Below the pieces are notes generated by a model, which was not told the origin of the DNA, did not search any database, and saw only the letters and a program-made list of their open reading frames with translations. Source: Bacillota bacterium (GTDB taxonomy: Bacteria; Bacillota; Dethiobacteria; DTU022; UBA8154). Taken from it: 53,980 nt of DNA. The stretch spans positions 1 through 53,980 of the forward strand of contig JAAYRR010000094.1 in the NCBI GenBank assembly GCA_012518675.1, given 5' to 3'. Every line of letters starts with the position of its first letter. The stretch's first letter is position 1. Below, piece by piece: positions 2,725-34,721 of the stretch. The translations under genes were made by a program, and so were the position numbers.

Positions 2725-2783
2725 CAAAATAAAGCGTCACCTGGTCAAAGGGGGAATAAACCCTCAACAACCAGGCGACGCTT
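2725..2783 (-). terminator. hairpin terminator after the flx/hdr/etf operon
   Basis: 13-bp stem AAGCGTCGCCTGG / CCAGGTGACGCTT. On the minus-strand RNA the single imperfection is a G-U pair. It is followed by TATTTT and lies 48 nt after the stop at 2831. Confidence 0.5.
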
Positions 2784-2830
2784 AATTTTGCTTTTAACTA
2801 ATACTTATTCCCTTATTCAGGCAAATATGC

Positions 2831-3679
2831 TTAGGCAAAGGCCTCCGGAATGCTTTTTAAGGTAGCATAACTGAAAACCGGCCCGTCCTTGCAGACGTAA
2901 AGATGGGCCACGTTACAGCGGCCGCATTTGCCGATGCCGCATTTCATCCTATTTTCAAGGGTAGTGTAGATCTGCTCATCGGTAAAGTTCAGCTCTTTCA
3001 GGTTTTGCAGAACAAAGTTAATCATCACCGGCGGTCCACAGGTGATCGCAATCGTGTTTTCCGGCGAAGGATCCACTTCCATGAGCAATGAAGGAACAAA
3101 ACCTACGTAATGTTCCCAGCCTTCTTCTTCAATGTCAATGGAAAGATGATAGTTAACATCATCCCGTTCATCCAATGCTTTAAATTCATCTTTAAAGCAA
3201 AGGTCTGCAGAAGTCCGGGCCCCATAGATCAGGCTTAACCCTTTATAATCTGCCCGGTTGGCCTTGACGTATTCAATAATCGGACGCAGGGGAGCCTGCC
3301 CGATACCACCACCGATTGTTAGGATATTTTTTCCCTTCCAATCATCAACGGGAAAGCTGTTGCCGTAAGGGCCGCGGACAGTCATCTTATCACCGGGTTC
3401 AAGCTCATGCAAAGCCTGGGTAACCTTGCCCGCACGCATCACTGAAAACCGCAGGAATTTACCCTCTGTAGGGGAACAGGAGATCGAAATCATGCTCTCT
3501 CCCACTCCTAAAATTCCAATCATGGCACATTGGCCCGGACGGTGTGACCAGTTTTCCCTTATTTCTTCATCATCGAGGACAACTTTAAAGGTTTTAATGG
3601 CACGATCGCCGTATGTTTCCTGCCAGGTATCCTCAATGGTTGCTATTTCAGGTTTATAGGGATTAGCTATCTCTTTCAT
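2831..3679 (-). CDS. FAD/NAD(P)H-binding oxidoreductase with C-terminal [2Fe-2S] site (FlxA / PyrK / AsrB-like)
   Basis: 282 aa. Ferredoxin-NADP reductase-type fold (RFSV, GGGIGQAP) and a C-terminal Cys cluster CGIGKCGRC. Overlaps the upstream gene by 4 nt. Confidence 0.8.
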   Translation of the reverse strand: MKEIANPYKPEIATIEDTWQETYGDRAIKTFKVVLDDEEIRENWSHRPGQCAMIGILGVGESMISISCSPTEGKFLRFSVMRAGKVTQALHELEPGDKMTVRGPYGNSFPVDDWKGKNILTIGGGIGQAPLRPIIEYVKANRADYKGLSLIYGARTSADLCFKDEFKALDERDDVNYHLSIDIEEEGWEHYVGFVPSLLMEVDPSPENTIAITCGPPVMINFVLQNLKELNFTDEQIYTTLENRMKCGIGKCGRCNVAHLYVCKDGPVFSYATLKSIPEAFA

Positions 3680-4698
3680 ATTGCCTCCTTAATAACCTCT
3701 GCTAAAATGTTGAGGATATCAATATTAACCGGACAAAGGTTAATACACCGGCCACAGCCTACACAAGCGATCTTACCGAACTTGGTTGCAAAATAGGAAT
3801 ACTTATGGTTAACCCGGTTACGTGTACGCTCGCGAACGGTAGGCCGGGGGTTATGTCCTGACGCATGCAGCGTGTACTCCGCAAACATACAGGAATCCCA
3901 TACCCGGCATCTACGGCCCTCCAGCCCTTCCGCCTCATCTTGAATATCAAAACAATAGCAGGTTGGGCAGAGGAAGGTACAGGTTCCACATCCCAAGCAG
4001 GCTCTGGAAAGATCCTGCCAGAGAGAATGATCCCAAAGTTCCATCAGTTTTTCTGTAACTCCTTCGGTATCAACCTTGCGGACAATTTTGCCGGCAGCCT
4101 CCTGGTGCAGCTTTTCGGCAGCGGCTGCGTCTTCCTCTGTCGCCTGTTCCAGCACCTCTGCCGCCTCCCGGCAAAGATTGTTCCCTTTTTCCGTCAGGGG
4201 CTGTAAAAGATATACCTCCCCCAGATCCGTAAGCAATAAATCCAGCCCTTCTGTAGAGGCCGGGCCGCCGCCGACAGAGGTACAAAAACAATTTACCTCC
4301 GGATCGGAACAGGCCAAACCAACCACCGTCGTTTTTTCCCGCTTGCCCTGGTAGTAGGGATCGTTATAATCCCAGGAAAAAAGGTCATCAACAATGGCCA
4401 TAGCCCGGGCATCACAGGGTCTTACCCCTAGCAGCACCTTTTCAGCTTCATCATCCGGTAAATTCAGATCTGTTTTTCCCAGTTCATACCGGTATAAAGT
4501 TTCTGTTTGCGGAAAAAGGACGCTTTTCGGTGGAACAGTCGTGTTGGAAAACTCCAGATCAAGCTTATCCTCCGGGGTAATGGGAACAAACCGGAGGGTT
4601 TCCCCCACTTTCTGGGGGGCATACAGCTGTTTATCCAGAGCTGCTAAAAAGTCACCAAACTTCTCTTTACCTATTTTCATCCTTTCCATAGTACCCAC
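3676..4698 (-). CDS. 4Fe-4S dicluster protein (FlxB / AsrA / sulfhydrogenase-beta-like)
   Basis: 340 aa with CLGCGTCTFLCPTCYC and CVGCGRCINLCP ferredoxin motifs. Translationally coupled on both sides. Confidence 0.75.
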   Translation of the reverse strand: MGTMERMKIGKEKFGDFLAALDKQLYAPQKVGETLRFVPITPEDKLDLEFSNTTVPPKSVLFPQTETLYRYELGKTDLNLPDDEAEKVLLGVRPCDARAMAIVDDLFSWDYNDPYYQGKREKTTVVGLACSDPEVNCFCTSVGGGPASTEGLDLLLTDLGEVYLLQPLTEKGNNLCREAAEVLEQATEEDAAAAEKLHQEAAGKIVRKVDTEGVTEKLMELWDHSLWQDLSRACLGCGTCTFLCPTCYCFDIQDEAEGLEGRRCRVWDSCMFAEYTLHASGHNPRPTVRERTRNRVNHKYSYFATKFGKIACVGCGRCINLCPVNIDILNILAEVIKEAI

Positions 4699-4700
4699 CC

Positions 4701-5705
4701 CTAGAGAATGAAGTCTTCCTTATCGTCAGGACGATAGCTGGATTGCAACGGTTTAGCTTCGGGATCGATCCCGGGCCTGTACCCATATTTTTCTTCAACT
4801 TCTTTTGAAAACTTCTGGTTGAGTTTCATCAACGGTATATCAACCGGGCAGACCCTTTCACATTCACCGCATTCAATACAGCGCCCGGCAAGGTGAAACG
4901 CACGGGACAGATGAAAAGCCGTATTTTCTGAAATATTGGTAGAACGATAGATCCAGCTGGGATTAAGCCGATCCAAGATACAGTCCTTGCAATAACACAT
5001 GGGGCAAACGTTGCGGCAGGAGTAACACCTAATACAGCTGCTAAATTTGTCCTCCCAAAACGCCCAGCGTTCTTCCGCACTTTTTGCCTCTAATTCTTTA
5101 ACATCCTGATATTCCCCGTTTCCCCAGGCTTCGATCTCCTCACCCAATGTTATATCCGCTATAACAGGGTTGGGATCACGGCAGTCCAAACATTTCTGGG
5201 CCAGCACTTCTTCCCTGGGGACCTCTACAACACCTTCCGGCAGTTGAAAAATAATTTTATCCTTTCCCCACTGGGCCGCTACCGGATCCAGAATATGGGG
5301 AAACTTTGCCTCCACCTTTTTTAAATCTAGCACTCCCTCACAGGGACAGCCGATAATGTACAGCTCTTCCCTTTTAATGCCCTGTTCAATTAACTGCTGG
5401 ACAACAGCGCGGCTGTCACAGCCTTTAACCATGACGGCAACTTTGCGCGTATCAGGTTTTTCTCCCCGGGGGAGCGGCAGTTTTTCCGTTACAATGAGAT
5501 AGGATGCCAGGTTATTGGTACAAAGAGGTGAAAAGATCAACTGCTCTGCCTCTCCCGGCTCCTCTATAAAACATGGAGTTACCCTAAAGCCATAGGTTCC
5601 CTGTCTCCAACCGATCAGATATTTAACGTCGTCCCGGGAGATGGTCTCTTTGGCTACAGTTCTGAGTTTTTCCAGGTCTACCAAGCGATCCCCCTCCTCT
5701 ACCAA
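4701..5705 (-). CDS. Fe-S cluster protein (FlxC-like, hydrogenase Fe-S subunit-like)
   Basis: 334 aa with CIRCYSCRNVCPMCYC and CIECGECERVCP. An alternative TTG start at 5684 has a better GAGGAGGGGG Shine-Dalgarno. Confidence 0.7.
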   Translation of the reverse strand: MVEEGDRLVDLEKLRTVAKETISRDDVKYLIGWRQGTYGFRVTPCFIEEPGEAEQLIFSPLCTNNLASYLIVTEKLPLPRGEKPDTRKVAVMVKGCDSRAVVQQLIEQGIKREELYIIGCPCEGVLDLKKVEAKFPHILDPVAAQWGKDKIIFQLPEGVVEVPREEVLAQKCLDCRDPNPVIADITLGEEIEAWGNGEYQDVKELEAKSAEERWAFWEDKFSSCIRCYSCRNVCPMCYCKDCILDRLNPSWIYRSTNISENTAFHLSRAFHLAGRCIECGECERVCPVDIPLMKLNQKFSKEVEEKYGYRPGIDPEAKPLQSSYRPDDKEDFIL

Positions 5706-6133
5706 TTGATCTTGTTGCGCCGGAATTGTTCAAAAGGCCCGGCTTCTTTGGCATTTTCAACAACTTCTTCCACCACATCTTTCCACTTGGCACCTTCAGA
5801 GGCGGAAACCCAGCTCATATTAAAACGCTTGGCATCCACACCCACATAATTTAGCAACTCGTTCATCAATGTAAACCGGCGGCGGGCGTAGAAGTTACCT
5901 TCCATATAGTGACAGTCGCCCGGATGGCAGCCGGAAACCAGGACACCATCAGCGCCCTGCTGTAAAGCATTGACAATAAAAAGGGGGTTAACCCTGCCGC
6001 TGCACATAACCCTGATAATGTCCAGGTTAGTAGGATATTGTATCCTGCTGGTTCCTGCCAAATCAGCACCGGCATAGGAGCACCAGTTACATAAAAAAGC
6101 GATGACACTCGGTTCAAATTGTTGTTCGCTCAT
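5699..6133 (-). CDS. mvhD: methyl-viologen-reducing hydrogenase delta subunit family protein (MvhD/FlxD)
   Basis: MSEQQFEPSVIAFLCNWCSYAGADLAG...MCSGRV...GCHPGDCHY is the MvhD signature. Its ATG overlaps the hdrA stop as ATGA at 6130-6133. I do not believe the longer track ORF reaching 6235. Confidence 0.9.
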   Translation of the reverse strand: MSEQQFEPSVIAFLCNWCSYAGADLAGTSRIQYPTNLDIIRVMCSGRVNPLFIVNALQQGADGVLVSGCHPGDCHYMEGNFYARRRFTLMNELLNYVGVDAKRFNMSWVSASEGAKWKDVVEEVVENAKEAGPFEQFRRNKINW

Positions 6134-8142
6134 CTCATAACCCCCAATGCAGCAATTTGTGGCAATATCTGGCCATCCATAAAAGATTTCTGCTGGGCAG
6201 AACCGGAGAAACAGCCGGCAACACAAGCGCCGCACCCCTTACACAAGGCGTCGTTGACCCTGGCCACCAAGGCCTCGTGTCCAAATTGGTTCACTGTTAC
6301 CAGTTCAATAGCACTGTAAGGACAGATCTCCACACAGTAGCCACAGCCCCGGCAGGTATCTTCGTTAATATGTGAAACCTGGGCCTGAACCTTGACTTTG
6401 CCACTGGAAAGCAAAACCAGTGCTGATGAAGCGGCCCCTTTGGCCTGGGCAACAGTATCCGGAATGTCCTTGGGGCCCTGGGCACAACCCGCCAGGAAAA
6501 CACCGTCAGTAGCCGTGTCTACAGGGGCCAACTTGGGGTGGGCCTCCATATAGAAACGGTCCCCTGATTGGGACAACCGTAAAATATCGATTATTTCCCG
6601 GGCATCCCTGCGGGGTTCCAGTCCTACTGCCAGGACGACCAGATCGACTTCATCTTCTACCGGGGTAGAGGTCAGTGTATTTTCCGCTTTGACAACGAGC
6701 TTGTCGCCACGCTTAAATACTTCCGAGGGATTGCCGCGGATATAGCGGACCCCTTCCCGCCGGACACGGTCATAAAATTCCTCAAACCCCTTGCCAAAAG
6801 CCCGGACATCCATATAATAAACCCTGACATTGGCATCTGGAATTTTTTCTGTCAGTAAATGTGCCAGTTTGGCTGTATACATACAGCAGACACGGGAACA
6901 ATATTCGTTGCCTACACTCTTGTCCCGCGAGCCGACACATTTAATAAAAGCAATATCCTTGGGCACATACGCATCGTCACCCTTACCGATCAGGATATCG
7001 CCTCCGGTGGGGCCGGAGGCGGAAACCAGCCGCTCCAACTCCAGGCCGGTGATGACATTTTCATAGTCGTTGTAACCATATTCCGGTTTCCGGGAGGCAT
7101 CGAACACATCGAAACCAGTAGCAACAATGATCGAACCAACCTTAAATTCTACGATTTCATCCTCTTGTTCGAAATTAATGGCCCCGGTACCACAGGCATC
7201 CACACATTTGGGAGATTTCCCGCATTTACCCCGGGTCAGCATCAGGCAACGTTCCGGGTCAATGGTATACTTGGCCGGCACGGCTTGAGGGAAAGGAAGG
7301 TAGATTGCGGCCCTTTTACCCATACCTTCATCAAATTCGCTGGGAATTCGCCCCGTTAAACGGCACTCCTGGGCACAAACCCCGCAACCGGTACACTTGT
7401 CCATATCCACATAGCGAGCCTTTTTGCGCACCTTGACATCAAAATTACCCACATAGCCGGAGACATCCTCCACCTGGGAATAGGTTAACAGTTCAATATT
7501 GGGATGGCTGGCCACATCCACCATTTTTGGTGTCAGAATACAGGCCGAGCAGTCCAATGTCGGGAATGTTTTATCCAGCTGGGACATCCTGCCCCCGACA
7601 GAGGGGGTTTTTTCAACCAGGTAAACTTTAAAACCGGCTTCGGCAATATCCAAAGCCGCCTGTATACCGGCAATACCCGCGCCGATGATCAAGGAGGCCG
7701 GTTCAACATCCACCTCTTTTTCCTGTAAGGGTTCCAGCAAGCGTGCCTTGACCGCAGCCGCAGCCACCAGCCTTTTGGCCTTGGCTGTAGCTTTTTCGCG
7801 ATCCCCGTGGACCCAGGAACAGTGTTCCCTGATGTTGGCCATTTCCAGATAATAAGGATTCAACCCTGCTTCTGCAAGGGTTTTGCGAAAAGTCAGCTCG
7901 TGCATGCGGGGGGAACAGGAGGCTACCACGACGCGGTTTAAGCCCTCATTTTTAATATCTTCCCGGATCAGCGCCTGTCCGGGGTCAGAACACATGTAGG
8001 AATATTCGCGTGCCACCCTTACATTCGGTAACTGGGAGGCAAACTCCGCTACGGCTTCAACATCCACCGTATGGGAAATGTTGATTCCGCAGTGACAGAC
8101 ATACACACCTATTTTGGGCTTGTTGTTCATTGCATCTTTCAT
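6130..8142 (-). CDS. hdrA: heterodisulfide reductase subunit A-like flavoprotein
   Basis: 670 aa. N-terminal CHCGINIS cluster site, GAGIAGIQAALDIAEAG FAD fold, inserted ferredoxin CTGCGVCAQEC, and C-terminal CRGCGYCVEICP and CKGCGACVAGC. Confidence 0.93.
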   Translation of the reverse strand: MKDAMNNKPKIGVYVCHCGINISHTVDVEAVAEFASQLPNVRVAREYSYMCSDPGQALIREDIKNEGLNRVVVASCSPRMHELTFRKTLAEAGLNPYYLEMANIREHCSWVHGDREKATAKAKRLVAAAAVKARLLEPLQEKEVDVEPASLIIGAGIAGIQAALDIAEAGFKVYLVEKTPSVGGRMSQLDKTFPTLDCSACILTPKMVDVASHPNIELLTYSQVEDVSGYVGNFDVKVRKKARYVDMDKCTGCGVCAQECRLTGRIPSEFDEGMGKRAAIYLPFPQAVPAKYTIDPERCLMLTRGKCGKSPKCVDACGTGAINFEQEDEIVEFKVGSIIVATGFDVFDASRKPEYGYNDYENVITGLELERLVSASGPTGGDILIGKGDDAYVPKDIAFIKCVGSRDKSVGNEYCSRVCCMYTAKLAHLLTEKIPDANVRVYYMDVRAFGKGFEEFYDRVRREGVRYIRGNPSEVFKRGDKLVVKAENTLTSTPVEDEVDLVVLAVGLEPRRDAREIIDILRLSQSGDRFYMEAHPKLAPVDTATDGVFLAGCAQGPKDIPDTVAQAKGAASSALVLLSSGKVKVQAQVSHINEDTCRGCGYCVEICPYSAIELVTVNQFGHEALVARVNDALCKGCGACVAGCFSGSAQQKSFMDGQILPQIAALGVMR

Positions 8143-8197
8143 CCTCCAACCAAGAATAACTGATCATGCCTATCTGCAAAAAACATTTTTTTCCCGA

Positions 8198-9172
8198 TTA
8201 ACCCCGCAGTTCTTTCAGCTTTTCCGCCATCTTGGGAACTACCTTAAAAAGATCATCAACGATAGCAAAATCAGCTACAGTAAAGATAGGTGCATCGGGG
8301 TCCCTGTTAATGGCCACGATGGTTTTCGATCCCTTGATACCGGCAATATGCTGGAAAGCACCGGAAATACCAATAGCGATGTAGAGTTTGGGCTTGACCG
8401 TTTTACCGGAGGTGCCCACCTGACGATCGTGAGGCAGCCAGCCAGCATCAGTTGCAGCACGCGAGCCGCAAAGATCGGCGTTAATGGCTGCAGCCAGCTC
8501 TTCGATCATCGCCATATTCTTGTCTTCCTTAACTCCCCGTCCCACCGCAATGAGAATTTCCGACTGGGTAATATCAACATCGCCCACTTCGGCCTCTAAA
8601 TATTCCACAAAACGGCGATATTCAATATCTTCCTTCAAGGGAGAATCGATTTTTTCGATCTGGCCTTCCTTGGAGGGTTCAGCTGCTTCAAGACTGGCCT
8701 CCCGGAAGGTGATTAAGTAAGGTGCCTCTCCTTTAAAGGCAAAGTTGGCGTTGACCTTGCCCTGGTAATATTGACGTATCGGTTGCAGTTTGCCGTCTGC
8801 AACCTGCACATCGAACACGTCGGCAATGAAAGGCATTTTCATTTCCACAGCCAGCGCCGGGGCCAAATCCACACCCTGCGTTGTATGGCCAATCATAAAA
8901 AGTTCGGGCTTATACTGGTTAATCAGTTCCACCAAAACCTTCTGATATTTTTCGGAGTTGTAGTCTGCAAAAAGAGGATCATCGACATAAAGAACTTTAT
9001 CGCTGTAACCGGCCAATGTTTCCGCAAAGGAGTCCACGCCGCTGCCCAGAAGGACCGCCACCGTGGAACCACCTAATTCTGCAGCCAACGCGGAAGCCTT
9101 GGTCAGCATTTCCTGCGAAACTTCCCGTAATGCTCCTTGGCGATGTTCAGCTAAAACAAATACGTCACCCAT
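8198..9172 (-). CDS. etfA: electron transfer flavoprotein alpha subunit
   Basis: 324 aa. Conserved C-terminal FAD-binding block [46 protein letters not shown]. Confidence 0.93.
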
Positions 9173-9961
9173 TTAGAGCAGTCCTCCTTTCACTAATTTT
9201 GTAGCCATAATTTCTGCTTTTTCTTCCGGTTCACCTTCGATAATCTCCGCCGTGGAGACCACCTCGGGGATATAAAATTCTTTCATCTCAATCAGAGAGC
9301 CGGCAGCACCAACCTCTTCTTCGCTGAGATTCAGATCTTCTATTTTCAACACCTTCAGTTCTTTCTTCTGTGCCTGCCGAATACCCCTGATGGGAGCATA
9401 GCGGGGTTCGTTGATCCCGGTCTGGATAGTAACAACAGCCGGCAGGGTAACCTCCACAACCTCTATGACTCCCCCTTCCAATTCCCGGTGAGCCTTGATC
9501 TTGCCGTCTTCAACTTCTACCTTTTTAACCATGGCGGCATGGGGTATACCCAATTCTTCGGCCAATGCCACCCCGGTGGACATGTTGCCGTCATCGTTGG
9601 ACATACATCCGGTTAATACCAGATCAAATTCCTGCCCTTTAATCGCTGCAGCAAGGGCCTTGGCTGACTGCAAGGGATCACGGGCATTAATCCGTGGATC
9701 GTCGATACGCATTGCGCTGTCGCCACCTTTGGCTAAAGCCATGCGGATCATTACATCAGCATCTGCCGGCCCCATACAAATAACCTGGACCGTCCCTCCC
9801 TTAGCTTCCTTGATCAATACTGCTTCTTCAACCGCATAGTTGTCAGCATCGTTGATATCAAAAGAAAACTTGCTGCTGTCAACATCCTTGCCTGTTGCAT
9901 CCACCTTTACTTCTGCCTCTGATGTATCCGGCACTCTTTTGATACAGACAAACGTTTTCAT
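9173..9961 (-). CDS. etfB: electron transfer flavoprotein beta subunit
   Basis: 262 aa, MKTFVCIKRVPDT N-terminus typical of EtfB. Its stop abuts the etfA start. Confidence 0.93.
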   Translation of the reverse strand: MKTFVCIKRVPDTSEAEVKVDATGKDVDSSKFSFDINDADNYAVEEAVLIKEAKGGTVQVICMGPADADVMIRMALAKGGDSAMRIDDPRINARDPLQSAKALAAAIKGQEFDLVLTGCMSNDDGNMSTGVALAEELGIPHAAMVKKVEVEDGKIKAHRELEGGVIEVVEVTLPAVVTIQTGINEPRYAPIRGIRQAQKKELKVLKIEDLNLSEEEVGAAGSLIEMKEFYIPEVVSTAEIIEGEPEEKAEIMATKLVKGGLL

Positions 9962-10111
9962 GAAAGCTCCACCTCCTGTAGACAGTTATTTTTCAAAAGA
10001 TGGGCCCTTAAAAACCCAGAAGAAAAAATTTTAAAGTATCCCCCCTTTAAACTGGAAGCATCATCGTCTGAATGCAATCCACATAATTTCAATAATAACA
10101 GTATAAGGACA

Positions 10112-11260
10112 CTATTCGATAAGTTTTCCAGCAATTTCAAGTATCTCCATAACCTGCATTTCTTCTTCAAAGCCCTTCGCCTTAACAGCATCGTCCAAAG
10201 TTAAAACACAGAAGGGACAGGCAACAGCCAGGATGGTAGCACCCAGCTCCTTGGCATCGCGGACCCTTTCTTCCGCCAGGCGTTCCTTGTGGGATTCAGT
10301 TTCCGCCCACATCTTGCCCCCGCCCCCCTCGCAGCAAAGGCTGCGCTCCCTATTGCGTGAAAATTCAACTTGTTCTGCGCCGGGAATCTGGTTTAGTATA
10401 TAGCGCGGTTCATCATAAACATCGTTCCGCTTGCCCAAATAACAGGGATCATGAAAAACAATCTTCTGGGCAAATTCTTTTGTGAACACCAGTTTTTCAT
10501 CTTCCAGAATTTCCTTCAACAGATGTGTGTAGTGTATTACCTCTGCCTGCAAATCAGGATACTGATTTTTAAGGGCATCATAACAGTGGGGGGAAAGAGT
10601 TACAATCCTGGTGGTATCAAAGCTGTTTAACAGCTCTGTGCCATCTTCGACCATCATTTCAAAAAGGCCGTCCTCCCCAACTTCCCCCATGTTGTATATT
10701 TCACTGGCACAACAGACTTCGTCATCCCCTACAAAACCATAATCAATACCGGCTTTATTAAGTACTTTTACAAAGTTTTGGGCGATAACCTGAACCTTGG
10801 GATCATAGGCGATAGTACAACAAACAAAGATGAGGTTTTCCACTTTTTCCCCGGGTACAGCAATTTTAACATCCAATCCCTGCATCCAGTCACTGCGTGT
10901 CGCCTTGGGTTTGCTCCAGGGGTTACCCTCCCGAAAAGCGCTTTCCAAAGCATCCCTGACTGTCGGCTGAATTACACCGCTTTCTACAAGGATATTTCTA
11001 AGGCCAATCAGCACCTCCATAGGCTTAAGGCCTTTGGGACACCTGATGGCACAGGTTTCACAAGTGGTACAATCCCACACTTCCGGTAATTTTGCCAATT
11101 CATCAAGCATACTTTCGTCAAGGGCATCGTAAACAATGCGCCTTACGTTTAAATCAGTCCGTGTATTAACCGGGCAGCCTCCGGTACATCTTCCGCACTG
11201 GATGCACCCCAACAAATCATGTTTTTGAATAAAACTCTGAACTTCTGTATTCATCTTCAT
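10112..11260 (-). CDS. soluble HdrD/GlpC-like Fe-S oxidoreductase (2x[4Fe-4S] ferredoxin domain plus two CCG domains)
   Basis: CIQCGRCTGGCP and CTTCETCAIRCP, then CCG-type Cys motifs (VCCASE, DPCYLGK, CCEGGGG, ACPFC). I see no hydrophobic helices. Confidence 0.85.
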   Translation of the reverse strand: MKMNTEVQSFIQKHDLLGCIQCGRCTGGCPVNTRTDLNVRRIVYDALDESMLDELAKLPEVWDCTTCETCAIRCPKGLKPMEVLIGLRNILVESGVIQPTVRDALESAFREGNPWSKPKATRSDWMQGLDVKIAVPGEKVENLIFVCCTIAYDPKVQVIAQNFVKVLNKAGIDYGFVGDDEVCCASEIYNMGEVGEDGLFEMMVEDGTELLNSFDTTRIVTLSPHCYDALKNQYPDLQAEVIHYTHLLKEILEDEKLVFTKEFAQKIVFHDPCYLGKRNDVYDEPRYILNQIPGAEQVEFSRNRERSLCCEGGGGKMWAETESHKERLAEERVRDAKELGATILAVACPFCVLTLDDAVKAKGFEEEMQVMEILEIAGKLIE

Positions 11261-11386
11261 ACCTCGCTAGAGATGTAATTTTATCTACCATCCCTTCAAG
11301 ATTGCTTGCAACCGCCCACCAAATATTCCCCAATAAATAGAAAACTGCAGATTAGCTAAATTACTGTTAAAAAACCCTGTTAAAAA

Positions 11387-11415
11387 AATTTATCGTTGGC
11401 GGTAATTATTATCAA
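11387..11415 (-). promoter_or_regulatory. possible sigma-A promoter of the hdrD-like/etf/hdrA operon
   Basis: The minus strand reads TTGATA, 17 nt, TAAATT, about 125 nt upstream of the start at 11260. It overlaps a direct repeat TTTTTTAACAG x2. Confidence 0.3.
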
Positions 11416-12085: not shown

Positions 12086-12274
12086 ATGAAACAAGAAGAT
12101 GAAAAGAAGCTGCTTGCGGATATTGAAAAACTTCGCATAAAATTAAACAAAGAATTAGATCCGGAAAGGAATGCCCCAAAAAACAGCCAACAAACTTATT
12201 TTTTAAGTTGTGAACTGGACAAGCTGATTAACAAGTACATGAAATTAACACAAACAAAAGAACTCGTAAAATGA
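12086..12274 (+). CDS. Spo0E-family sporulation regulatory aspartyl-phosphate phosphatase-like protein
   Basis: 62 aa, KLLADIEKLRIKLNKEL...YFLSCELDKLINKYM resembles the Spo0E helical hairpin pattern (IE.lR..L ... S..LD.LI). No clear Shine-Dalgarno upstream, hence moderate confidence. Confidence 0.55.
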   Translation: MKQEDEKKLLADIEKLRIKLNKELDPERNAPKNSQQTYFLSCELDKLINKYMKLTQTKELVK

Positions 12275-12351: not shown

Positions 12352-14241
12352 TCAGACCAACTTCCGGGCCACTCTTTCATCCCCCAGGCGGCGGGTATAT
12401 TTGCAGCTGTCAAAATGTTCAAGCAGCGCCTGTGCATATTTGCGGGAGGTCTGCAGCAGATCACGGTATTGAGCAAGGTTTATCCGGGGGTTTTTTTGTA
12501 AATAGTCCTTTAAAACCTGCAGGCAGTGTTCATAGACCTTGCTTTGCAGGTAAATTTCTGCAGCAATTTTTACCAAAACCCCCCTGTAAGCAAGGTAATC
12601 CAGCAGATCTACAGCCTCCCCCTTTCCAAGGCCCAGGTCAATGCATAAATCCTTGGGCGCCGGAGGCGTGAGACCGCTTTTCTTAAAGAGGTTTTCGATT
12701 GCTGCCAGTTTTTTTTCCTGGCCCGGAGTAGGCCGGGGAATAAAGCCTTTTTTGGTAATTACATCCCCGCTGCTAATAAGCAAACCTTTACTTTTCAAAT
12801 GTTCCAAAAAGGCATCATAGGCGGGGCCGGCAATTTTGCGGGGCAGGTATCTGCCAATCCTTGATTTTGGTGCACCCGGTAACAAAGGTTTTTCTGTATG
12901 GAAATGTTCCAGTTCTTTCATTATTTCCTTTTCCCATTTTCCCCTGTCTGCAGCAGTAACGTATAGGTCACCGAACAAAGCCACCTTGCCCTCCGCGGCA
13001 GCCCTTTGTAACAGCGCTTCCAGCCGCTGGGGGGTCATTTTCGTCAGATGCGATAAGTCAGACAAAGGGGCAGCCTGGACAGCTGTTATTTTTTGTAGCA
13101 CGAAGGGAAGCGGGTCACCTTTTTCAAGTTCCTGTAACCTTTCCAATACATCCCGGTGAAACCGTTTGTGGCGCAAAGGGCGCTCATCAAGCACCTTCCC
13201 CCCGCCAATAGTGACAACCGGTGAATAGGAACGAATAATAAAGCGGTCACCGCGTTGGGCAATCAGGGGTTTATCAAGCCGGCATTGTACAAAACACTCT
13301 TTTCCCGGCAGCAGTTCTGTGTTCTCCAGCAAATACAAGGAGGCCACAGCCCGGGCCGTTCCCAAATAAAAATGAACCGGAACCATATTGGTTAGCGGAC
13401 GGGGGGCTGTGGAAAGCAATTTTAACTTGGCATCCAGGCGCCGGGTAGTATGAAAATAACCGGGGGCAGCCACTACCGACCCTCTTAGGACCCCTTCCTT
13501 TTCCAAGCCGGCCAGGTTCAAGGCTGTCCTCTGCCCTGCAAAGGCCTCCGCAACCCCCTCCCCATGGACCTGTATCCCCCGGACCCTGAAATTTCGGCCG
13601 GGAGGGGTTACTTCAACCGTTTCACCCGTTTTAACCGTACCGTTTAAAATTGTGCCTGTAACAACGGTTCCGAATCCGGAAAGGGAAAAAACCCGGTCCA
13701 CAGGCAGGCGCAAAGGAGCGTCTCTGTCACCGGCAGTTATTTTTTCTGCCATTAGGGCCACTGTCTCCCTTAAGTTTTCAATACCCTGTTTAGTAATTGC
13801 GGAAACAAGATGCAGGGGGCTGTTCGCCAAAAAGGTACCGGTAAAGGCCTCCTTTATTTCCTCTATAATCAGTTCCAACCATTCCTTGTCCACCAGATCA
13901 ATTTTGGTTACAACAATTATGCCTTTTTTTATTTGCAGCAATTCCAGAATGTCAAGATGTTCTTTTGTCTGGGGCATAACACCTTCTGTGGCGTCTACCA
14001 CCATCAAAACAAGGTCGATTCCCCCCACCCCGGCCAGCATGTTATGAATAAACCTTTCATGCCCGGGGACATCAACTATCCCTGCCAGACGGCCGCTGGG
14101 AAGCTGAAAGGGGGCAAACCCAAGATCGATGGAAATACCCCGTTTTTTTTCTTCTTTTAACCGATCTGTATCTGTGCCCGTCAGGGCCTTAATCAATTCT
14201 GTTTTACCGTGATCCACATGCCCGGCTGTCCCAATAATCAT
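12352..14241 (-). CDS. selB: selenocysteine-specific translation elongation factor
   Basis: 629 aa. [23 protein letters not shown]-domain, followed by a long winged-helix C-terminal extension. Overlaps selA by 4 nt. Confidence 0.95.
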
Positions 14242-15704
14242 GGCTCAAAACCCCCCCCGGTTTCTTCCTCTGCAGACCGCGGAAAAGTCTGCACAATCGT
14301 TTCTATTAACAGTTCATCAGCTTCTTCCAAAAGAGAACGCAAATCCAGCAAAATTTTATTTTTCAGCACCCGGGATATAACAGGATACCTGGTTCCCCGC
14401 AGTTTTTTAACCAGTTCGTTCACGCTCGTCCCTGTGCGTTCCAGGGTTACCTGGTAGCTGGGCAGGAAAGCAAGAGGCAATGAACCGCCCCCCACCCGGG
14501 CCTTTTCCCGGGAAATGCCGATAGTCCAGCCCGGGCCCAGCCTGGCAGCTAACTTTGCAGCCAAAACTTCTGCCCGTGCCTTCAAAACTGTGCTGGGAAC
14601 GGTGAGCATGCGTAAGACGGGGATTTCCCTGAAAGCTTTTTCTTCATCCAAGTAAAGGCGCAAAGTGCTTTCCAAAGCAGCCAGGGTCATTTTACCCACT
14701 CGCAAGGCCCTGGTTAGCTGATTACTTTTTATACTTTCCAGGTATTTTTTCTTGCCGATGATTAGACCGCTTTGAGGCCCCCCCAGCAGCTTATCCCCAC
14801 TAAAGGTTACAACATCAACCCCAGCCTTTATAGAATCCTGAACCCGGGGTTCATAGGGCAGGCCGTAGCGGGTGAGATCGACCAGGACCCCACTGCCCAA
14901 GTCTTCCATAACCGGCAAACAGCACTTCCGGCCCAGCCCTGCAAGCGAAGCAGCGTCTACTGAGGATGTAAAACCCATAATTTTAAAGTTGCTGCTGTGC
15001 ACCTTCAACAGCAGGGCTGTTTTTTCGTTAATGGCCCCTTCATAATCCCGCAGGTAGCTTTTATTAGTGGTCCCTACCTCGGCAAGCAGTGCCCCGCTGG
15101 CAGTCATCACCTCCGGCAGACGAAAAGAGCCCCCAATCTCTACCAGTTCACCGCGGGAAACAACAACCTCCCGCCCTGCCGCAAGGGTATTTAAAGCCAG
15201 GAAAACCGCCCCCGCGTTGTTGTTGACCACCAACGCCGCTTCTGCCCCCGTAATCCGGCAAATAAGTTCTTCCACATGTTCATAACGATAGGCCCGGCGG
15301 CCGGTTTGCAGTGAAAGTTCCAGATTGCAAAAAGAGCTGCTTATCCTCTGCAGCATCGCTGCTGCAACTGCAGCCAATGGGGCCCGTCCCAAATTTGTAT
15401 GCAAGAGCACACCGGTAGCATTAAAAACAGGCTGAAAATTGGCCCTGGATCTTTCATCAACCTTCTGCCTGGCTTCTAAAGCAAGGGCAGCAGGGGAAAG
15501 GGTCATACCTTCCAGTTGCCGACCCGTTAAAGCCCTTTGAATAACAGCCCGTTTTTCAGCCACTACTTCCTGCACAGCTTCCACAATAAGGTCACGTGGT
15601 ATTTCCCTTTCCACCCCCTTCAACTCTGTTTCCTGTAAAATCTTATCTACAGCCGGCAAAAGACGTAAATACTTTTGCCGGAGCTGTTTATAATCCAGGG
15701 ACAA
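14238..15704 (-). CDS. selA: L-seryl-tRNA(Sec) selenium transferase
   Basis: 488 aa. PLP-lysine motif FSGDKLLGGPQSG and NNNAGAVFLAL are typical of SelA. Confidence 0.95.
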   Translation of the reverse strand: MSLDYKQLRQKYLRLLPAVDKILQETELKGVEREIPRDLIVEAVQEVVAEKRAVIQRALTGRQLEGMTLSPAALALEARQKVDERSRANFQPVFNATGVLLHTNLGRAPLAAVAAAMLQRISSSFCNLELSLQTGRRAYRYEHVEELICRITGAEAALVVNNNAGAVFLALNTLAAGREVVVSRGELVEIGGSFRLPEVMTASGALLAEVGTTNKSYLRDYEGAINEKTALLLKVHSSNFKIMGFTSSVDAASLAGLGRKCCLPVMEDLGSGVLVDLTRYGLPYEPRVQDSIKAGVDVVTFSGDKLLGGPQSGLIIGKKKYLESIKSNQLTRALRVGKMTLAALESTLRLYLDEEKAFREIPVLRMLTVPSTVLKARAEVLAAKLAARLGPGWTIGISREKARVGGGSLPLAFLPSYQVTLERTGTSVNELVKKLRGTRYPVISRVLKNKILLDLRSLLEEADELLIETIVQTFPRSAEEETGGGFEP

Positions 15705-15806
15705 TTTTTTTCCCCCTTCCTTTCTCTGCTTAATTATAGCCTGAAGAAGGTTTATTGGACAAGGAACGGACCAGAAAAGCAGGGGTCCGTAAGAAACGTT
15801 ACCGAT

Positions 15807-16049
15807 CTATACTTTATAGACAACATCACCCCCTTTTACCCTGTTGTCCACTTTCAGGCCGACCGCCTGCCCCGCCTGGGCGGTTTCAATATCTTCATGA
15901 TCGATTTGCATGGATGCAACTACCTGTTCAAAATCGCTGTTACTGCCCTTAAAAGCAATCCTATCCCCAACACTGATTGTAGCCGTCAGTTCCACCACTG
16001 CCACCGACACCTTGCCAAAATAATGGGTCACCTTGCCAATTTCATCCAT
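15807..16049 (-). CDS. small EF-Tu domain-2-like beta-barrel protein (translation elongation factor-like)
   Basis: Start chosen at the ATG at 16049 (MDEIGKVTHYFGKVSVAVVEL...), preceded by AGGAAGGGG. VGDRIAFKG...QAGQAVGLKV..VKGGDVVYKV looks like a translation-factor domain II barrel. Confidence 0.6.
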   Translation of the reverse strand: MDEIGKVTHYFGKVSVAVVELTATISVGDRIAFKGSNSDFEQVVASMQIDHEDIETAQAGQAVGLKVDNRVKGGDVVYKV

Positions 16050-16351
16050 ACTGTATACCCCTTCCTGAAGTATAATATATTTTTTACCAATTATAACAGA
16101 CAACCTGCAAAAAAAAGATTGGGTTGCTATATTTTCCCTGTATTTATTTTGCCTGATTACCAAAAATTTCATTCTTTTACAACCCTTAAACCGAACCAGG
16201 CGTACCATTTCAGCAGCACCCCTGCGGTTACCCGCCAGGTAGGAAATGACACAGTGAAACCGGAAGTTAGTTTGTGGGTATCCAACTTTATACTATATAA
16301 TAGAAATATCAGACAAGTTTTAAGGGATAGGATGGAGGAATTTCAAAGTTT

Positions 16352-17614
16352 ATGCTGCAGTCAAAGCGTGGGTTGGTTTTCGGTGTTTTATGTTTAATTT
16401 TTGTTTCTGCCCTTTTTTTACGTACCTGCACGGCTGTCATTGCTGAAGATCTGTTAAGAGACTTTGCCATACCGCCCACCTCTTTGGGACTGATGGCTTC
16501 AGTTTTCTTTTATGCCTACGCCAGCGCCCAGATACCCGTAGGCATTCTTGCGGATCGATTTGGTGTAGGGTGCACTGTTTTTGGTTTTGGGCTGCTGGGT
16601 GTTGCAGCCTCCTTATCCTTCGCCTATGCACCGAACATACAAATTGCCACCTGGACCAGGATGCTTACCGGGGCAGGTACAGCCGGCATCTTTATCCCGA
16701 CGTTAAAATTTCTTTCCCTTACCTACCCACCACAAAAATTTGCCACCATGAGCAGTGTCATCAACGCTGCAGGCAGCATGGGAAGCATGCTTTCCACACT
16801 GCCCATGGCCCTGTTGGTAGAAAAAATAGGCTGGCGCCATTCCCTGGTCATACCGACAGCGGTTATGTTTGTGTTGCTCCTGTTCGTCTGGTTTTTAATG
16901 AAACCGCTCACAAAAACAACGGGTAGGACCATAAAAGCAATAAACGAAGGAACAGAAAACCCTCAGGCGTCAACATCCAGTCAAAAAACTGCCGTTGCTT
17001 TTTGGCGCCAACCGGTATTCTGGCCCTTTGCCATCTGGGCGTTTCTTGTTTATGGTGTCTTACTCAGTTTTTCCAGCCTTTGGGGGGCAACGTACTTGCA
17101 GGAAGTCTTTCATGTAAGCAGAAAAACCGCCGGCGGTCATTTAATGTTTGTTTTTATCGGTATGATCGCCGGGGGGGTGCTTTGGGGGGTGCTGTCTGAT
17201 CGCGTTTTCAAGGCCCGCCGCCCCATTATGTTTATCGCAACGCTGGGCCAGCTTCTTTTATGGCTGGTCATGGTTCTTCTTTCCACCTACCCCGGCCCCT
17301 TTTTTACATCTCTAATCTATTTGGCGATCGGCACCTGCAGCGTCGTTTTTCTCATCAACCTAAGCTGCGTAAAAGAACTTTTTCCTGCCAACGTTGCCGC
17401 TACAGCCATGGGAACGGTAGATGCTTTTATGTTTTTTGGTGTTGCCTTTTTTCAGGGAATTACCGGGTATCTCTTGGATATAACCACAAAAAATCATTCT
17501 TTTGGGAAGGCTTTTCACTATATTTTCATCCTTTACCTTGTCAGCATTATTTTTGCTTTTTTGCTGATCTTATTGATGCCCGAAACCTTCCCTGTAAACA
17601 AAAAAACCAGCTAA
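16352..17614 (+). CDS. MFS transporter
   Basis: 420 aa with about 12 hydrophobic segments and an MFS loop motif GILADRFG between TM2 and TM3. Confidence 0.85.
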   Translation: MLQSKRGLVFGVLCLIFVSALFLRTCTAVIAEDLLRDFAIPPTSLGLMASVFFYAYASAQIPVGILADRFGVGCTVFGFGLLGVAASLSFAYAPNIQIATWTRMLTGAGTAGIFIPTLKFLSLTYPPQKFATMSSVINAAGSMGSMLSTLPMALLVEKIGWRHSLVIPTAVMFVLLLFVWFLMKPLTKTTGRTIKAINEGTENPQASTSSQKTAVAFWRQPVFWPFAIWAFLVYGVLLSFSSLWGATYLQEVFHVSRKTAGGHLMFVFIGMIAGGVLWGVLSDRVFKARRPIMFIATLGQLLLWLVMVLLSTYPGPFFTSLIYLAIGTCSVVFLINLSCVKELFPANVAATAMGTVDAFMFFGVAFFQGITGYLLDITTKNHSFGKAFHYIFILYLVSIIFAFLLILLMPETFPVNKKTS

Positions 17615-17732
17615 TCCCAAGGATTTTTGCAAACCACTTAAACGGATTACCCGGCTATGGAACCATACCCCACCCTGTGGGGGTTAAAATTTCTGAAAGA
17701 ACAAGATTTTAATCTTTACCTACAGTCTTTAC

Positions 17733-17897
17733 CTAATCAAAGCTCAAACGTTCTTTATGCTTGCAACCTATACAGATTAAATCCACGTCGCCGTCATTCC
17801 AAATCAGAACAACCCCCTGATTTCCATCACAAACCGGGCATTTAACGATATGGCTGTCAATTACCTGTGCCTCAAAAGTTTCATATTCCTTTTCCAT
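17733..17897 (-). CDS. small zinc-ribbon protein (hypothetical)
   Basis: 54 aa from the ATG at 17897, preceded by GGAGG. CPVC...CIGC pair. Lies immediately downstream of tRNA-Sec on the same strand. Confidence 0.4.
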   Translation of the reverse strand: MEKEYETFEAQVIDSHIVKCPVCDGNQGVVLIWNDGDVDLICIGCKHKERLSFD

Positions 17898-17942
17898 TAC
17901 TAACCTCCTGAACAAAATCACACTTTAATATCCTGTAATTTT

Positions 17943-18038
17943 TGGCGGGAGTAGATGGGAATCGAACCCACCATGGGCCTCGTCAGCCCATCATTGGATT
18001 TGAAGTCCAAGGCGCCCACCAGGTGCACAACTACCCCC
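17943..18038 (-). tRNA. selC: tRNA-Sec (anticodon UCA)
   Basis: Minus strand: GGGGGTAG TT GTGCAC CTGGT GGGCGC C TTGGA CTTCAAA TCCAA TG ATGGGC TGACGAG GCCCAT G GTGGG TTCGATT CCCAT CTACTCCC G CCA. It has an 8-bp acceptor stem, a 6-bp D stem, a UCA anticodon, a long 6-bp variable arm, a 5-bp T stem and an encoded CCA. This is the bacterial 8/5 tRNA-Sec architecture. Confidence 0.9.
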
Positions 18039-33449: not shown

Positions 33450-34721
33450 ATGACTGAACATACTGTTAAGCGAACTTTTAATTCTCAACTGGGGACCGGC
33501 ATCGCCTCTTTTGTTCTTTGTTTTATTTTAGCCTGTATCCTTTGGCCTATTTGGTCCCTGATTATGAAGTCTATTTTCAGTTCCTTGGCTGCAGCCGGTT
33601 TGGCAGCAGTTGAACCGGGAACGGCAGGTGAACTGATGGGGGTCATGGTGGAAGGCAGTTTTTTCTGGATGGTAATCAACCCTTGGATTTGGATGACCAT
33701 TATTATGGGGAACTATGGTAAAACACACTATACCACCAAACAACCGCATGCCGGGCTCTGGTATTCTGTAGTAGCCCTGATTGCGGGCCTGCTAGCTTTC
33801 TTTGTCATTATCGGGTTTATCGGCATCTGGTGGAAGCCGTTTAACCTGGCCCTGTTGTTAACACCTAAAACAGCAGCAGAGGTGGAGTTGGCCATTATGG
33901 GTTGGGGAGCCGCCAACTTTCTTGCTTTACCGGTCATCATGACCCAAATTCCTTTCGCGGCACTGTTCCATAAGTGGCCTTTTGCCGGCACATCCAAACA
34001 GCCGACCGAAGGCTGGGGTGTTTTCTTCTTCAGCACACTTGCGGTCGTTATTGTCTGGATAGCCACAGTTATACCCCACTTTATACCCTTTTCGGTTAAC
34101 GGCCAGTCTGTTGTCAACCCACCAATGGGTTCCTGGGCTACCTGGGTTGCTTTCTGTCAGGCGTTCATTTTCGTTTTCCTGATTCCCGCCGAAGGCGGGG
34201 AAGGCTATCCGATGAAGCTTTTTACCCAAAAGCAGCCCTATATGGGAATCGTTGGCTTTGTGATAGCCCTTGCTGCCGGGTTGATTGTGCCCCCCATTGT
34301 GCGGGGAATAATTGCTCCCTTGGATCTGCTGCCCGGAGCCCCGGTTGATTTGGCAGTGGCCTCCATCATTTTAACAGGGGTTATCAGCATGTTATTCTGG
34401 CACCACCTGTTTGATGACTACCCCAGTGCCCAGCTTGTGCCCAACACTGCAGCCCGCGTCTTAATCCGTTTGGCCATTTGGGTTGTCCTGGGCGCTGTGC
34501 TAGGCGTTATTTGGCTTAAGATTTTTACTATCGTGCCCTTTGGGGCCAACAACTTAGGTATGGGTTACCCCACGATGGGTGTCTTGGCCGGTCAGTTCGC
34601 CTTTTTAATGACACTGCTGTTCTATAACACCTTCTTTGATAAATGGCCCTTGGTCTATAAGGAACGGGTCAGGGTCGGTTACAAAGAAACGGTTGCCAAT
34701 TTAAAAGAAGATCTGCCGTAA
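33450..34721 (+). CDS. polytopic integral membrane protein, family not recognised
   Basis: 423 aa with about 10-12 hydrophobic segments rich in W/F/G. Strong AAGGAGGG Shine-Dalgarno and a clean terminator. Confidence 0.8.
   Translation: MTEHTVKRTFNSQLGTGIASFVLCFILACILWPIWSLIMKSIFSSLAAAGLAAVEPGTAGELMGVMVEGSFFWMVINPWIWMTIIMGNYGKTHYTTKQPHAGLWYSVVALIAGLLAFFVIIGFIGIWWKPFNLALLLTPKTAAEVELAIMGWGAANFLALPVIMTQIPFAALFHKWPFAGTSKQPTEGWGVFFFSTLAVVIVWIATVIPHFIPFSVNGQSVVNPPMGSWATWVAFCQAFIFVFLIPAEGGEGYPMKLFTQKQPYMGIVGFVIALAAGLIVPPIVRGIIAPLDLLPGAPVDLAVASIILTGVISMLFWHHLFDDYPSAQLVPNTAARVLIRLAIWVVLGAVLGVIWLKIFTIVPFGANNLGMGYPTMGVLAGQFAFLMTLLFYNTFFDKWPLVYKERVRVGYKETVANLKEDLP

Follow-up and report, generated by a model that had tools for sequence, protein, structure and literature searches.

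Gene content and organization of the locus

We analysed a 53,980-nucleotide (nt) stretch of DNA (contig JAAYRR010000094.1 of assembly GCA_012518675.1, positions 1 to 53,980 of the forward strand; hereafter the window), in which positions 2831 to 11260 encode eight consecutive open reading frames (ORFs), all on the minus strand. The host is a Dethiobacteria metagenome-assembled genome (MAG) from biogas reactors, not a member of the Peptococcaceae. The ORF list, profile searches and comparison with solved structures assigned the genes, in the order of transcription, to a soluble HdrD-like iron-sulfur (Fe-S) protein, the electron transfer flavoprotein (ETF) subunits EtfB and EtfA, HdrA, MvhD/FlxD, FlxC, FlxB and FlxA (Table 1). 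A preliminary description of the sequence had given this gene order and domain content, and all eight ORFs were recovered with the domains named there. As argued below, the cluster probably encodes a soluble system that couples NAD(P)H, ferredoxin and ETF through one bifurcating flavin.

Table 1. Genes and transcription signals of the eight-gene cluster
Feature	Position	Strand	Evidence
HdrD-like soluble Fe-S protein (HdrC+HdrB-type fusion, EtfD/EMO-like)	10112-11260	-	Pfam CCG x2, Fer4; two CxxCxxCxxxC motifs
EtfB, W3A1-like, without the beta-FAD motif	9173-9961	-	PF01012 (Pfam ETF)
EtfA, carries the alpha-FAD	8198-9172	-	PF01012 and PF00766 (ETF, ETF_alpha); PDB alignments
HdrA, full-length methanogen-type bifurcating flavoprotein	6130-8142	-	5odc_A, E 3e-249; NCBIfam HdrA2 model, 890 bits
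MvhD/FlxD [2Fe-2S] adaptor	5699-6133	-	PF02662, E 1e-52; aligns with the C-terminal MvhD part of the HdrA2 model
FlxC, FdhB/FrhB-family Fe-S (possibly flavin) subunit	4701-5705	-	Fe-S domains; weak Pfam FrhB_FdhB_C; 9t1s_M, E 7e-28
FlxB, sulfhydrogenase-beta-like Fe-S subunit	3676-4698	-	PF17179, E 7e-34; 9nez_B, E 1.3e-56
FlxA, NAD(P)H/FAD-binding subunit with [2Fe-2S]	2831-3679	-	NAD_binding_1, 6e-15; DHODB_Fe-S_bind, 2e-11; 9nez_C, E 3.7e-62
Sigma-70-like promoter, TTGATA-17-TAAATT	11387-11415	-	Consensus scan; only good candidate
5' untranslated leader, ~120 nt	11261-11380	-	RNA unitigs 11254-11383 and 11271-11374
Weak hairpin in the hdrD-like/etfB spacer	10001-10018	-	Scan; RNA contigs read through
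Intrinsic terminator	2725-2783	-	Strong 14-bp hairpin AAGCGTCGCCTGGT...ACCAGGTGACGCTT, then T-run TATTTT

Most of the tight coupling between genes noted earlier was confirmed, including the ATGA overlaps at 6130-6133 (hdrA/mvhD) and 3676-3679 and the abutting etfB and etfA genes (TAA-ATG). The overlap at 5699-5705, in contrast, depends on a doubtful TTG start of flxC; the 327-residue ORF of relatives is matched better by a TTG near 5684 that a Shine-Dalgarno sequence (GGAGGGGG) precedes, and the true start is perhaps there. Spacers of 150 nt (hdrD-like/etfB, which contains the weak hairpin) and 55 nt (etfA/hdrA) are also present.

None of the eight proteins showed a transmembrane helix in a check for hydrophobic segments. 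Neither hdrB nor hdrC is present in the operon, where the HdrC+HdrB-type fusion is the only CCG protein. The 54-kb window contains no gene for an acyl-CoA, lactate or other substrate dehydrogenase, in agreement with the preliminary description, no MetF gene and no dsrC-like gene. The leader and spacers of the operon gave no Rfam match to a riboswitch or known RNA family.

Transcription of the operon

The window sequence was present in biogas and anaerobic-digester metagenomes and in several metatranscriptomes. RNA contigs and unitigs from five biogas metatranscriptomes covered 2791-11383 without a gap, with contig depths over the cluster, a rough measure of expression, of 24-82, 47-123, 33-630 and 1-30 in four runs. 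A single 1873-nt RNA contig (9398-11270; X4, X5) extended from etfB across the 150-nt spacer into the hdrD-like gene, and contigs of X7 and X8 likewise crossed this spacer, showing that the hairpin within it is no effective terminator. The 55-nt spacer between etfA and hdrA was bridged by overlapping unitigs in four runs, a fifth run among them.

At the upstream end, the RNA boundary at 11374-11383 and the lack of RNA between 11393 and ~11838 in four runs fit the sigma-70-like promoter. At the downstream end, RNA contigs stopped near 2791 and depth fell more than 10-fold behind the terminator, from 41-198 to 3-4, with 2254-2630 almost free of RNA. DNA depth in three DNA runs was flat (12-19) over the whole stretch, RNA-empty spacers included, so that the RNA pattern can be attributed to transcription, and DNA contigs independent of the MAG also supported the gene order. 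The eight genes form one transcription unit from ~11380 to the terminator, and both the single operon and the terminator proposed in the preliminary description are borne out. The operon was one of the two loci of the window best covered by RNA; for comparison, the housekeeping stretch from codY to topA to panBC had depths of 18, 25 and 10-17, and the lar region was near 0-5.

An internal promoter or terminator separating etf from hdr/flx had been named beforehand as evidence that would speak against the composite reading. No RNA gap divides the two parts, but RNA depth was 1.5- to 5-fold higher over flx/hdrA than over the hdrD-like gene and etf, and an additional internal promoter or unequal mRNA stability is possible.

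Two further features lie at the operon start. A direct repeat (TTTTTTAACAG, two copies 2 nt apart on the minus strand) lies both at the -10 box and immediately after it (11364-11388). The RNA 5' boundary falls at this repeat, which is a possible operator. At 11243-11283, a 38-41-nt unitig that overlaps the ribosome-binding region and start codon of the hdrD-like gene had a depth 4- to 9-fold higher than on either side, in DNA runs as well as RNA runs, and interrupts every assembly; this stretch is probably common to more abundant strains or species with the same operon.

Conservation of the cluster and its neighbourhood

To find related loci, aligned EtfA relatives were used to search one genome per species, the best 80 loci were retained, and their gene content was assigned by tblastn with the eight proteins. 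The eight genes occur in identical order in ~45 species-level genomes from two phyla (Dethiobacteria and Actinomycetota). The whole cluster is contained in 35 loci, 24 of Dethiobacteria type and 11 of Actinomycetota, and ~10 more are truncated by contig ends. The former (within L002-L032) are labelled Dethiobacteria, Bacillota or 'Syntrophomonadaceae' MAGs, many of them from digesters and serpentinising springs, while the latter (within L033-L047) belong to Ca. Geothermincola, Solincola and Anoxymicrobiaceae. The etfBA-hdrA-mvhD adjacency, for which a synteny search had been suggested, is thus kept across both phyla. All of the best 80 loci were MAGs, with no cultured carrier among them, and on the 3.3-Mb NCBI record that carries P0149 its gene is not followed by etf and hdrA, the scaffold being probably concatenated.

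Identity to the window proteins ranged from 51 to 98% per protein among the cluster-bearing loci, and the pairwise distances of the eight proteins were correlated across 32 taxa (r 0.88-0.97). The Dethiobacteria loci are flanked by selA-selB (with or without selD) upstream and by an RseC-like gene plus asd or lysA downstream, whereas other genes flank the cluster in the Actinomycetota carriers. This difference between the phyla marks the eight-gene block itself as the conserved unit.

Shorter forms were also found in more distant loci. EtfBA-HdrA-MvhD without Flx occurred in five loci (L048, L053, L054, L057 and L070), and HdrD-EtfBA without HdrA occurred in Ca. Alkanophaga, Syntrophoarchaeum and others.

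These data bear on whether the operon encodes two separate, merely co-transcribed enzymes: a soluble HdrD-like/EtfAB pair serving acyl-CoA metabolism, and an HdrA-MvhD-FlxABC NAD(P)H:ferredoxin enzyme that works with HdrBC or another partner encoded elsewhere. The two halves do occur apart in other lineages (PMC4759654), and the 150-nt and 55-nt spacers together with the rise in RNA depth toward the flx end would suit such a division. We nevertheless regard it as unlikely, given that the same eight-gene order persists in two phyla despite different flanks and that all eight proteins show closely correlated sequence distances. In addition, HdrA lacking another CCG partner would have no high-potential exit, and a soluble EtfD-like protein lacking a membrane domain would have no acceptor.

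Two loci carry labels that disagree with their operon proteins. L006 (JAGVAS010000110.1), labelled 'Desulfovibrio sp.', encodes operon proteins 69-88% identical to those of the window that group with the Dethiobacteria set, and L041 (DYIU01000002.1), labelled 'Acidimicrobium ferrooxidans', encodes proteins 52-77% identical that group with the Actinomycetota set. The labels or the binning of both are probably wrong, judging from these groupings.

Upstream of the operon, the region 12352-18038 of the window contains selA-selB and a tRNA-Sec (17947-18038). The selA-selB pair directly precedes the operon in ~20 Dethiobacteria loci (L002-L032), and selD is inserted before the hdrD-like gene in many relatives. 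A link to selenoproteins was considered and rejected: none of the eight genes needs an in-frame TGA, and the sel synteny is lineage-specific and absent in Actinomycetota. On the other side, an RseC/MucC-family membrane protein gene (1956-2447), preceded by a GC-rich 280-nt untranslated stretch, lies behind the terminator in 23 Dethiobacteria loci. Its product was considered as a membrane anchor of the complex and not included in the system, as the gene lies beyond the terminator, is transcribed at a 5- to 50-fold lower level and is absent from the Actinomycetota loci.

The HdrD-like protein resembles the soluble part of EtfD

The best solved relative of the HdrD-like protein was the soluble region of Mycobacterium smegmatis EtfD, an ETF:menaquinone oxidoreductase (9ojn_A, residues 409-741, E 3.6e-49), compared with E-values of 3e-16 for HdrC and 2e-5 for HdrB. 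A Foldseek search with the predicted structure, whose pLDDT (per-residue model confidence) exceeds 85 in the CCG half and is poor in the ferredoxin half, also returned 9ojn first (E 1e-16), followed by LutA and HdrB. The protein begins at its first Fe-S motif and has no transmembrane-type hydrophobic segment.

Both cubane motifs are kept (C19/22/25/29 and C64/67/70/74), as is the complete five-cysteine set of the second CCG domain (C273, C309, C310, C348 and C351). The first CCG domain reads C147-C148 ... C183-C184 ... S223-P-H225-C226; relative to EtfD, Ser replaces Cys581, Cys replaces Thr539 and Cys147 is extra. In EtfD, His583 completes the proximal cluster and renders it non-catalytic (PMC13083937), and His225 of the HdrD-like protein aligns with this residue. 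The cluster ligands, including S223-P-H225-C226, are conserved in 31-32 of the 32 orthologues. By sequence and predicted fold, the CCG-domain site of the preliminary description, present as two CCG domains, looks more like the non-catalytic Fe-S wire by which EtfD faces ETF than like a disulfide reductase.

In a classical Flx-Hdr arrangement, the HdrD-like protein would instead reduce a disulfide of a protein or small molecule (DsrC-like or another thiol), and ETF would be an added donor or acceptor. A disulfide acceptor is assumed in the Flx-Hdr literature (PMC6687939; PMC4759654), and the full five-cysteine set of the C-terminal CCG domain, along with five cysteines in the N-terminal one, would be compatible with it. 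This arrangement appears distinctly unlikely here in view of the conserved His225, the counterpart of the histidine that makes the EtfD cluster non-catalytic (PMC13083937). By E-value the protein is also 30 orders of magnitude nearer to EtfD than to HdrB/HdrC, its gene always adjoins etfBA, and a dsrC-like gene is missing from the window.

EtfAB is probably of the non-bifurcating type

The Etf subunits were typed using the motif definitions of two earlier studies (PMC9232219; PMC5691135). The closest solved relative of EtfB was the AMP-containing, non-bifurcating ETF of Methylophilus methylotrophus W3A1 (1o94_C, E 1e-48), as against E-values of 7e-34 (CarD) to 5e-24 for bifurcating EtfBs and 1e-30 for human EtfB. 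In bifurcating Etfs, the motif DGDTAQVGP recognises the beta-FAD (flavin adenine dinucleotide), and its mutation removes one FAD together with the bifurcating activity (PMC9232219). This motif aligns with DDGNMSTGV in the window EtfB, with only two of nine positions matching, and was found in none of the 80 relatives. Three further segments follow W3A1 rather than the bifurcating consensus (ADCT to ADVF and GRDL to GVDL in EtfA, and the arm anchor SPTQV to SLIEM in EtfB), and the STG and YIPE segments of EtfB are also common to W3A1. The EtfB segment LTGCMSNDDGNMSTG, described earlier as fitting neither the bifurcating nor the classical motif, can now be explained as a W3A1-type 'STG' variant.

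EtfA has no N-terminal ferredoxin domain and is similar to CarE (6e-63), C. difficile EtfA (2e-59) and W3A1 EtfA (7e-53). Arg136 of C. difficile EtfA contacts N5 of the beta-FAD (PMC5691135), and Arg133 occupies this position in the window EtfA. The residue was rejected as a discriminator of bifurcation, since the non-bifurcating W3A1 protein carries Arg there too.

Given the missing beta-FAD motif of EtfB and its closeness to the AMP-type W3A1 protein, ETF is more likely, on sequence grounds, to be the high-potential substrate of the system than a second bifurcation site. The preliminary description had counted two bifurcation-capable flavoprotein modules, a count that these data do not support. 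For the operon to hold two, EtfAB would itself have to bifurcate and oxidise NADH, in series or in parallel with the HdrA flavin of the same complex. We consider this very unlikely: besides the mismatch to DGDTAQVGP in the window and in all 80 relatives (PMC9232219) and the three W3A1-like segments, FlxA already provides a separate NAD(P)H module. On the other side, EtfA is as near to the bifurcating EtfAs as to W3A1, the EtfB N-terminus (VCIKRVPDT) resembles that of bifurcating EtfBs, and class II benzoyl-CoA reductase (BCRII) demonstrates that two bifurcation modules can be coupled.

HdrA and the probable NAD(P)H input module

HdrA matched Methanothermococcus HdrA (5odc_A) over residues 8-665 and has the full-length architecture, with an N-terminal cluster, a TrxR-like FAD domain and both inserted and C-terminal ferredoxin domains. 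The DCSxCIL (Cys197-type) motif is kept, with LDKTFPTLDCSACIL in the alignment.

FlxC matched the C-terminal half of FdhB in Fdh/Elp-Hdr supercomplexes (9t1s_M, and also 8rvu_E and 7bkb_E). A Foldseek search with its AlphaFold model, of moderate confidence (pLDDT 65), returned FdhB (7bkb_E, 8rvu_E) over the whole length, followed by FrhB, HCAR and Fsr. FlxB and FlxA are relatives of the beta and gamma subunits of sulfhydrogenase I, respectively, the latter being the NADPH-binding one.

Proposed mechanism

A composite complex is the best reading of the locus because the genes form one operon, their order is kept in two phyla and the distances of their products co-vary. The preliminary description had proposed a composite bifurcating or confurcating complex with a substrate pair that was not obvious. 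The complex is retained here, with one bifurcating flavin and with ETF as a substrate; because the CCG protein resembles the EtfD wire, the substrates are no longer obscure and are read as NAD(P)H, ferredoxin and ETF. We thus consider it probable that the operon encodes one soluble, membrane-independent NAD(P)H:ferredoxin/ETF bifurcating (reversibly, confurcating) system whose single bifurcation site is the FAD of HdrA.

We infer the following electron path. NAD(P)H, either NADH or NADPH, would be oxidised at FlxA (FAD, [2Fe-2S]), and electrons would pass through FlxB (Fe-S), FlxC (FdhB-like) and MvhD/FlxD ([2Fe-2S]) to the HdrA flavin. The low-potential electron would leave through the HdrA ferredoxin domains to ferredoxin (Fd), and the high-potential electron would move from HdrA through the two cubane and two CCG-type clusters of the HdrD-like protein to the alpha-FAD of the non-bifurcating EtfAB, bound stably or transiently. 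ETF would thereby take the place that the heterodisulfide or DsrC holds in classical Hdr systems, and its own redox partners would be acyl-CoA dehydrogenases, or a different enzyme that depends on ETF, with genes at another site of the genome. The net reaction, which may run in either direction, would be 2 NAD(P)H + 2 Fd(ox) + ETF(ox) <-> 2 NAD(P)+ + 2 Fd(red) + ETF(red).

The relevant potentials are -320 mV for NAD, approximately -420 to -500 mV for ferredoxin and -10 mV for crotonyl-/butyryl-CoA. With these textbook values, the reaction driven by NADH releases energy if an enoyl-CoA is the sink, as it does in Bcd-EtfAB. Forming NADH from ETF that acyl-CoA has reduced takes about +25 to +40 kJ per reaction, for which the pools would have to be strongly displaced.

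Several points weigh against this reading. The case for a complex comes from genes and RNA, and co-transcription does not prove co-assembly; the depth step within the operon, with the internal promoter or unequal stability that it allows, adds to this. The shorter gene sets show that the modules can also work apart, and D. reducens has an HdrA-MvhD-HdrD-FeS-FeS-FlxA arrangement without Etf (PMC4759654). The first CCG ligand set (CC...CC...SPHC) is unusual. Finally, the bifurcating-like N-terminus of EtfB and a partial 'QVGP' in some relatives make it possible that EtfAB, as an uncharacterised Etf clade, holds a second FAD.

Possible partners of ETF

Genes for an acyl-CoA dehydrogenase (ACAD) or enoyl-CoA hydratase (ECH) were present in 24 of 33 loci of the wider Etf clade, often adjoining etfA. 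In three Actinomycetota loci with the full cluster, ECH and/or ACAD genes lie 1-3.6 kb downstream of flxA (L034, 16707-18703; L045, 9959-11959; L035, 12090-12878). Because of these neighbouring genes, acyl-CoA dehydrogenases are the best-supported partners of ETF. Digester Dethiobacteria have been proposed to be syntrophic acetate oxidisers with the Wood-Ljungdahl pathway and a complete beta-oxidation pathway (PMC7334858). Methylmalonyl-CoA mutase genes were also observed upstream of the hdrD-like gene in L034 and L040.

In Wood-Ljungdahl carriers without a neighbouring ACAD gene, ETF might be the missing redox partner of a MetFV-type methylene-tetrahydrofolate (THF) reductase, an idea that we regard as very doubtful. 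The carriers concerned would, speculatively, be those Dethiobacteria put forward as syntrophic acetate oxidisers, the Geothermincola/Solincola Actinomycetota and NPL-UPA2. The corresponding reaction would be near equilibrium and reversible: 2 NAD(P)H + Fd(ox) + methylene-THF <-> 2 NAD(P)+ + Fd(red) + methyl-THF. If this held, it would explain a quinone-free energy coupling of this step in acetogens and syntrophic acetate oxidisers.

Comparison with known systems

Two systems come nearest to the operon: FlxABCD-HdrABC and, in class II benzoyl-CoA reductase, the BamDEF-ETF branch. For Desulfovibrio vulgaris FlxABCD-HdrABC (Hdr-Flox), oxidation of NADH with reduction of ferredoxin and a high-potential acceptor has been proposed (Ramos et al. 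2015, as cited in PMC4759654 and PMC6687939). Judged by domain content, our operon shares with it the NAD(P)H-binding FlxA, the Fe-S proteins FlxB and FlxC, the MvhD-like FlxD and HdrA as the presumed bifurcator, and in both systems FlxD (the MvhD homologue) adjoins HdrA. The gene order is inverted here (hdrA-flxD-C-B-A), one EtfD-like fusion replaces the separate HdrB and HdrC, and etfBA lies inside the operon, so that the acceptor is probably ETF and not a DsrC-type disulfide.

In the Geobacter metallireducens class II benzoyl-CoA reductase, bifurcation takes place at the HdrA-like BamE, from which the high-potential electron reaches ETF by way of the HdrBC-like BamD, as shown experimentally; BamD has a histidine-ligated proximal non-cubane cluster and a distal cluster altered from Cys to Ser (bioRxiv 10.64898/2026.04.10.717634). 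Shared features are the HdrA-type bifurcating flavin, the MvhD-type feeding adaptor and the HdrBC/HdrD-like exit to a non-bifurcating ETF. The comparison with BamD follows its published description, by which the His ligand is common to both and the conserved Ser223 stands at a CxxC position here. No PDB entry of BamD was among the hits of the HdrD-like protein, whose best 120 homologues were unnamed. The two systems differ in the low-potential branch (ferredoxin here, tungsten benzoyl-CoA reductase there) and in the input module (sulfhydrogenase beta/gamma plus FdhB-like Flx here, NuoEFG-like BamGHI there). Furthermore, HdrA is single and normal here as opposed to a fused double HdrA, MvhD has Cys in place of selenocysteine, and the etf genes are part of the operon.

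The HdrD-like protein shares with EtfD/EMO (PDB 9OJN) the two [4Fe-4S] motifs, the two CCG domains, the proximal-cluster His and a gene position next to etfBA, as in many EMO loci. It differs in being soluble, with neither a transmembrane nor a haem b domain, and its predicted partner is HdrA instead of menaquinone. A similar set of genes occurs in the Type II sHdr cluster of sulfur oxidisers, shdrC1B1AHB3-etfAB-emo, in which ETF is proposed to carry electrons away (PMC11094781). Both clusters combine HdrA, an HdrC-HdrB fusion (sHdrB3 there) and etfAB, whereas sHdrA is short and non-bifurcating and acts in sulfur oxidation with lipoate-binding proteins, and that cluster contains a membrane EMO and no MvhD or Flx.

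The methanogen Fdh/Elp-MvhD-HdrABC complexes (7BKB, 8RVU and 9T1S) have the same layout, from an input module through an FdhB-type subunit, MvhD and HdrA to a CCG subunit. The window HdrA is ~60% identical to methanogen HdrA, and the beta subunit on the input side, FdhB, has its homologue in FlxC. Unlike in the methanogen complexes, the input here would be NAD(P)H in place of formate dehydrogenase or hydrogenase, and the acceptor would be ETF and not CoM-S-S-CoB, the heterodisulfide.

The preliminary description had allowed that this exact architecture might already be characterised with a defined substrate. No such characterisation was found in full-text literature searches, which yielded one passing mention: in the NPL-UPA2 'Unc8' MAG, etfAB lies in tandem with hydB-hdrAC, and the authors remarked that an Hdr-like complex may pair with Etf instead of Mvh and that 'further investigations are required' (Suzuki et al. 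2018, PMC6305446). This was a genomic remark on one MAG, made without subunit analysis, mechanism or experiments. The subunit combination described here, conserved in dozens of species, is a new variation on known Hdr, Flx and ETF parts.

The known acceptors on the high-potential side of HdrA-based bifurcation are the heterodisulfide, disulfides of the DsrC type and, through MetFV, methylene-THF; a 2026 preprint added ETF, in benzoyl-CoA reductase. If our reading is correct, the operon would add a free-standing NAD(P)H:ferredoxin/ETF oxidoreductase, an HdrA counterpart to Bcd-EtfAB with its bifurcating Etf, that ties NAD(P)H and ferredoxin to the pool of ETF independently of quinones and membranes. 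The same reading would answer which high-potential acceptor serves Flx-Hdr systems in organisms that have no DsrC, a question raised for syntrophs (PMC6687939). The operon is strongly transcribed in working biogas reactors, in candidate syntrophic acetate or fatty-acid oxidisers, and may matter for the energetics of methanogenic digestion. As the eight proteins are soluble and could be co-expressed, the proposal is directly testable.

Other features of the window

A lysine riboswitch (Rfam RF00168, 121 bits) lies at 1724-1911 on the minus strand, upstream of lysA-dapF. Between selB and the operon, the AT-rich spacer encodes a small Spo0E-like ORF on the opposite strand (~12086-12270, plus strand); RNA contigs are present from ~11838 upward, although the contigs do not give the strand. 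The other locus strongly covered by RNA is a 423-residue ORF without a Pfam match at 33450-34721 on the plus strand, which had a depth of 48-188 compared with 10-25 for neighbouring housekeeping genes.

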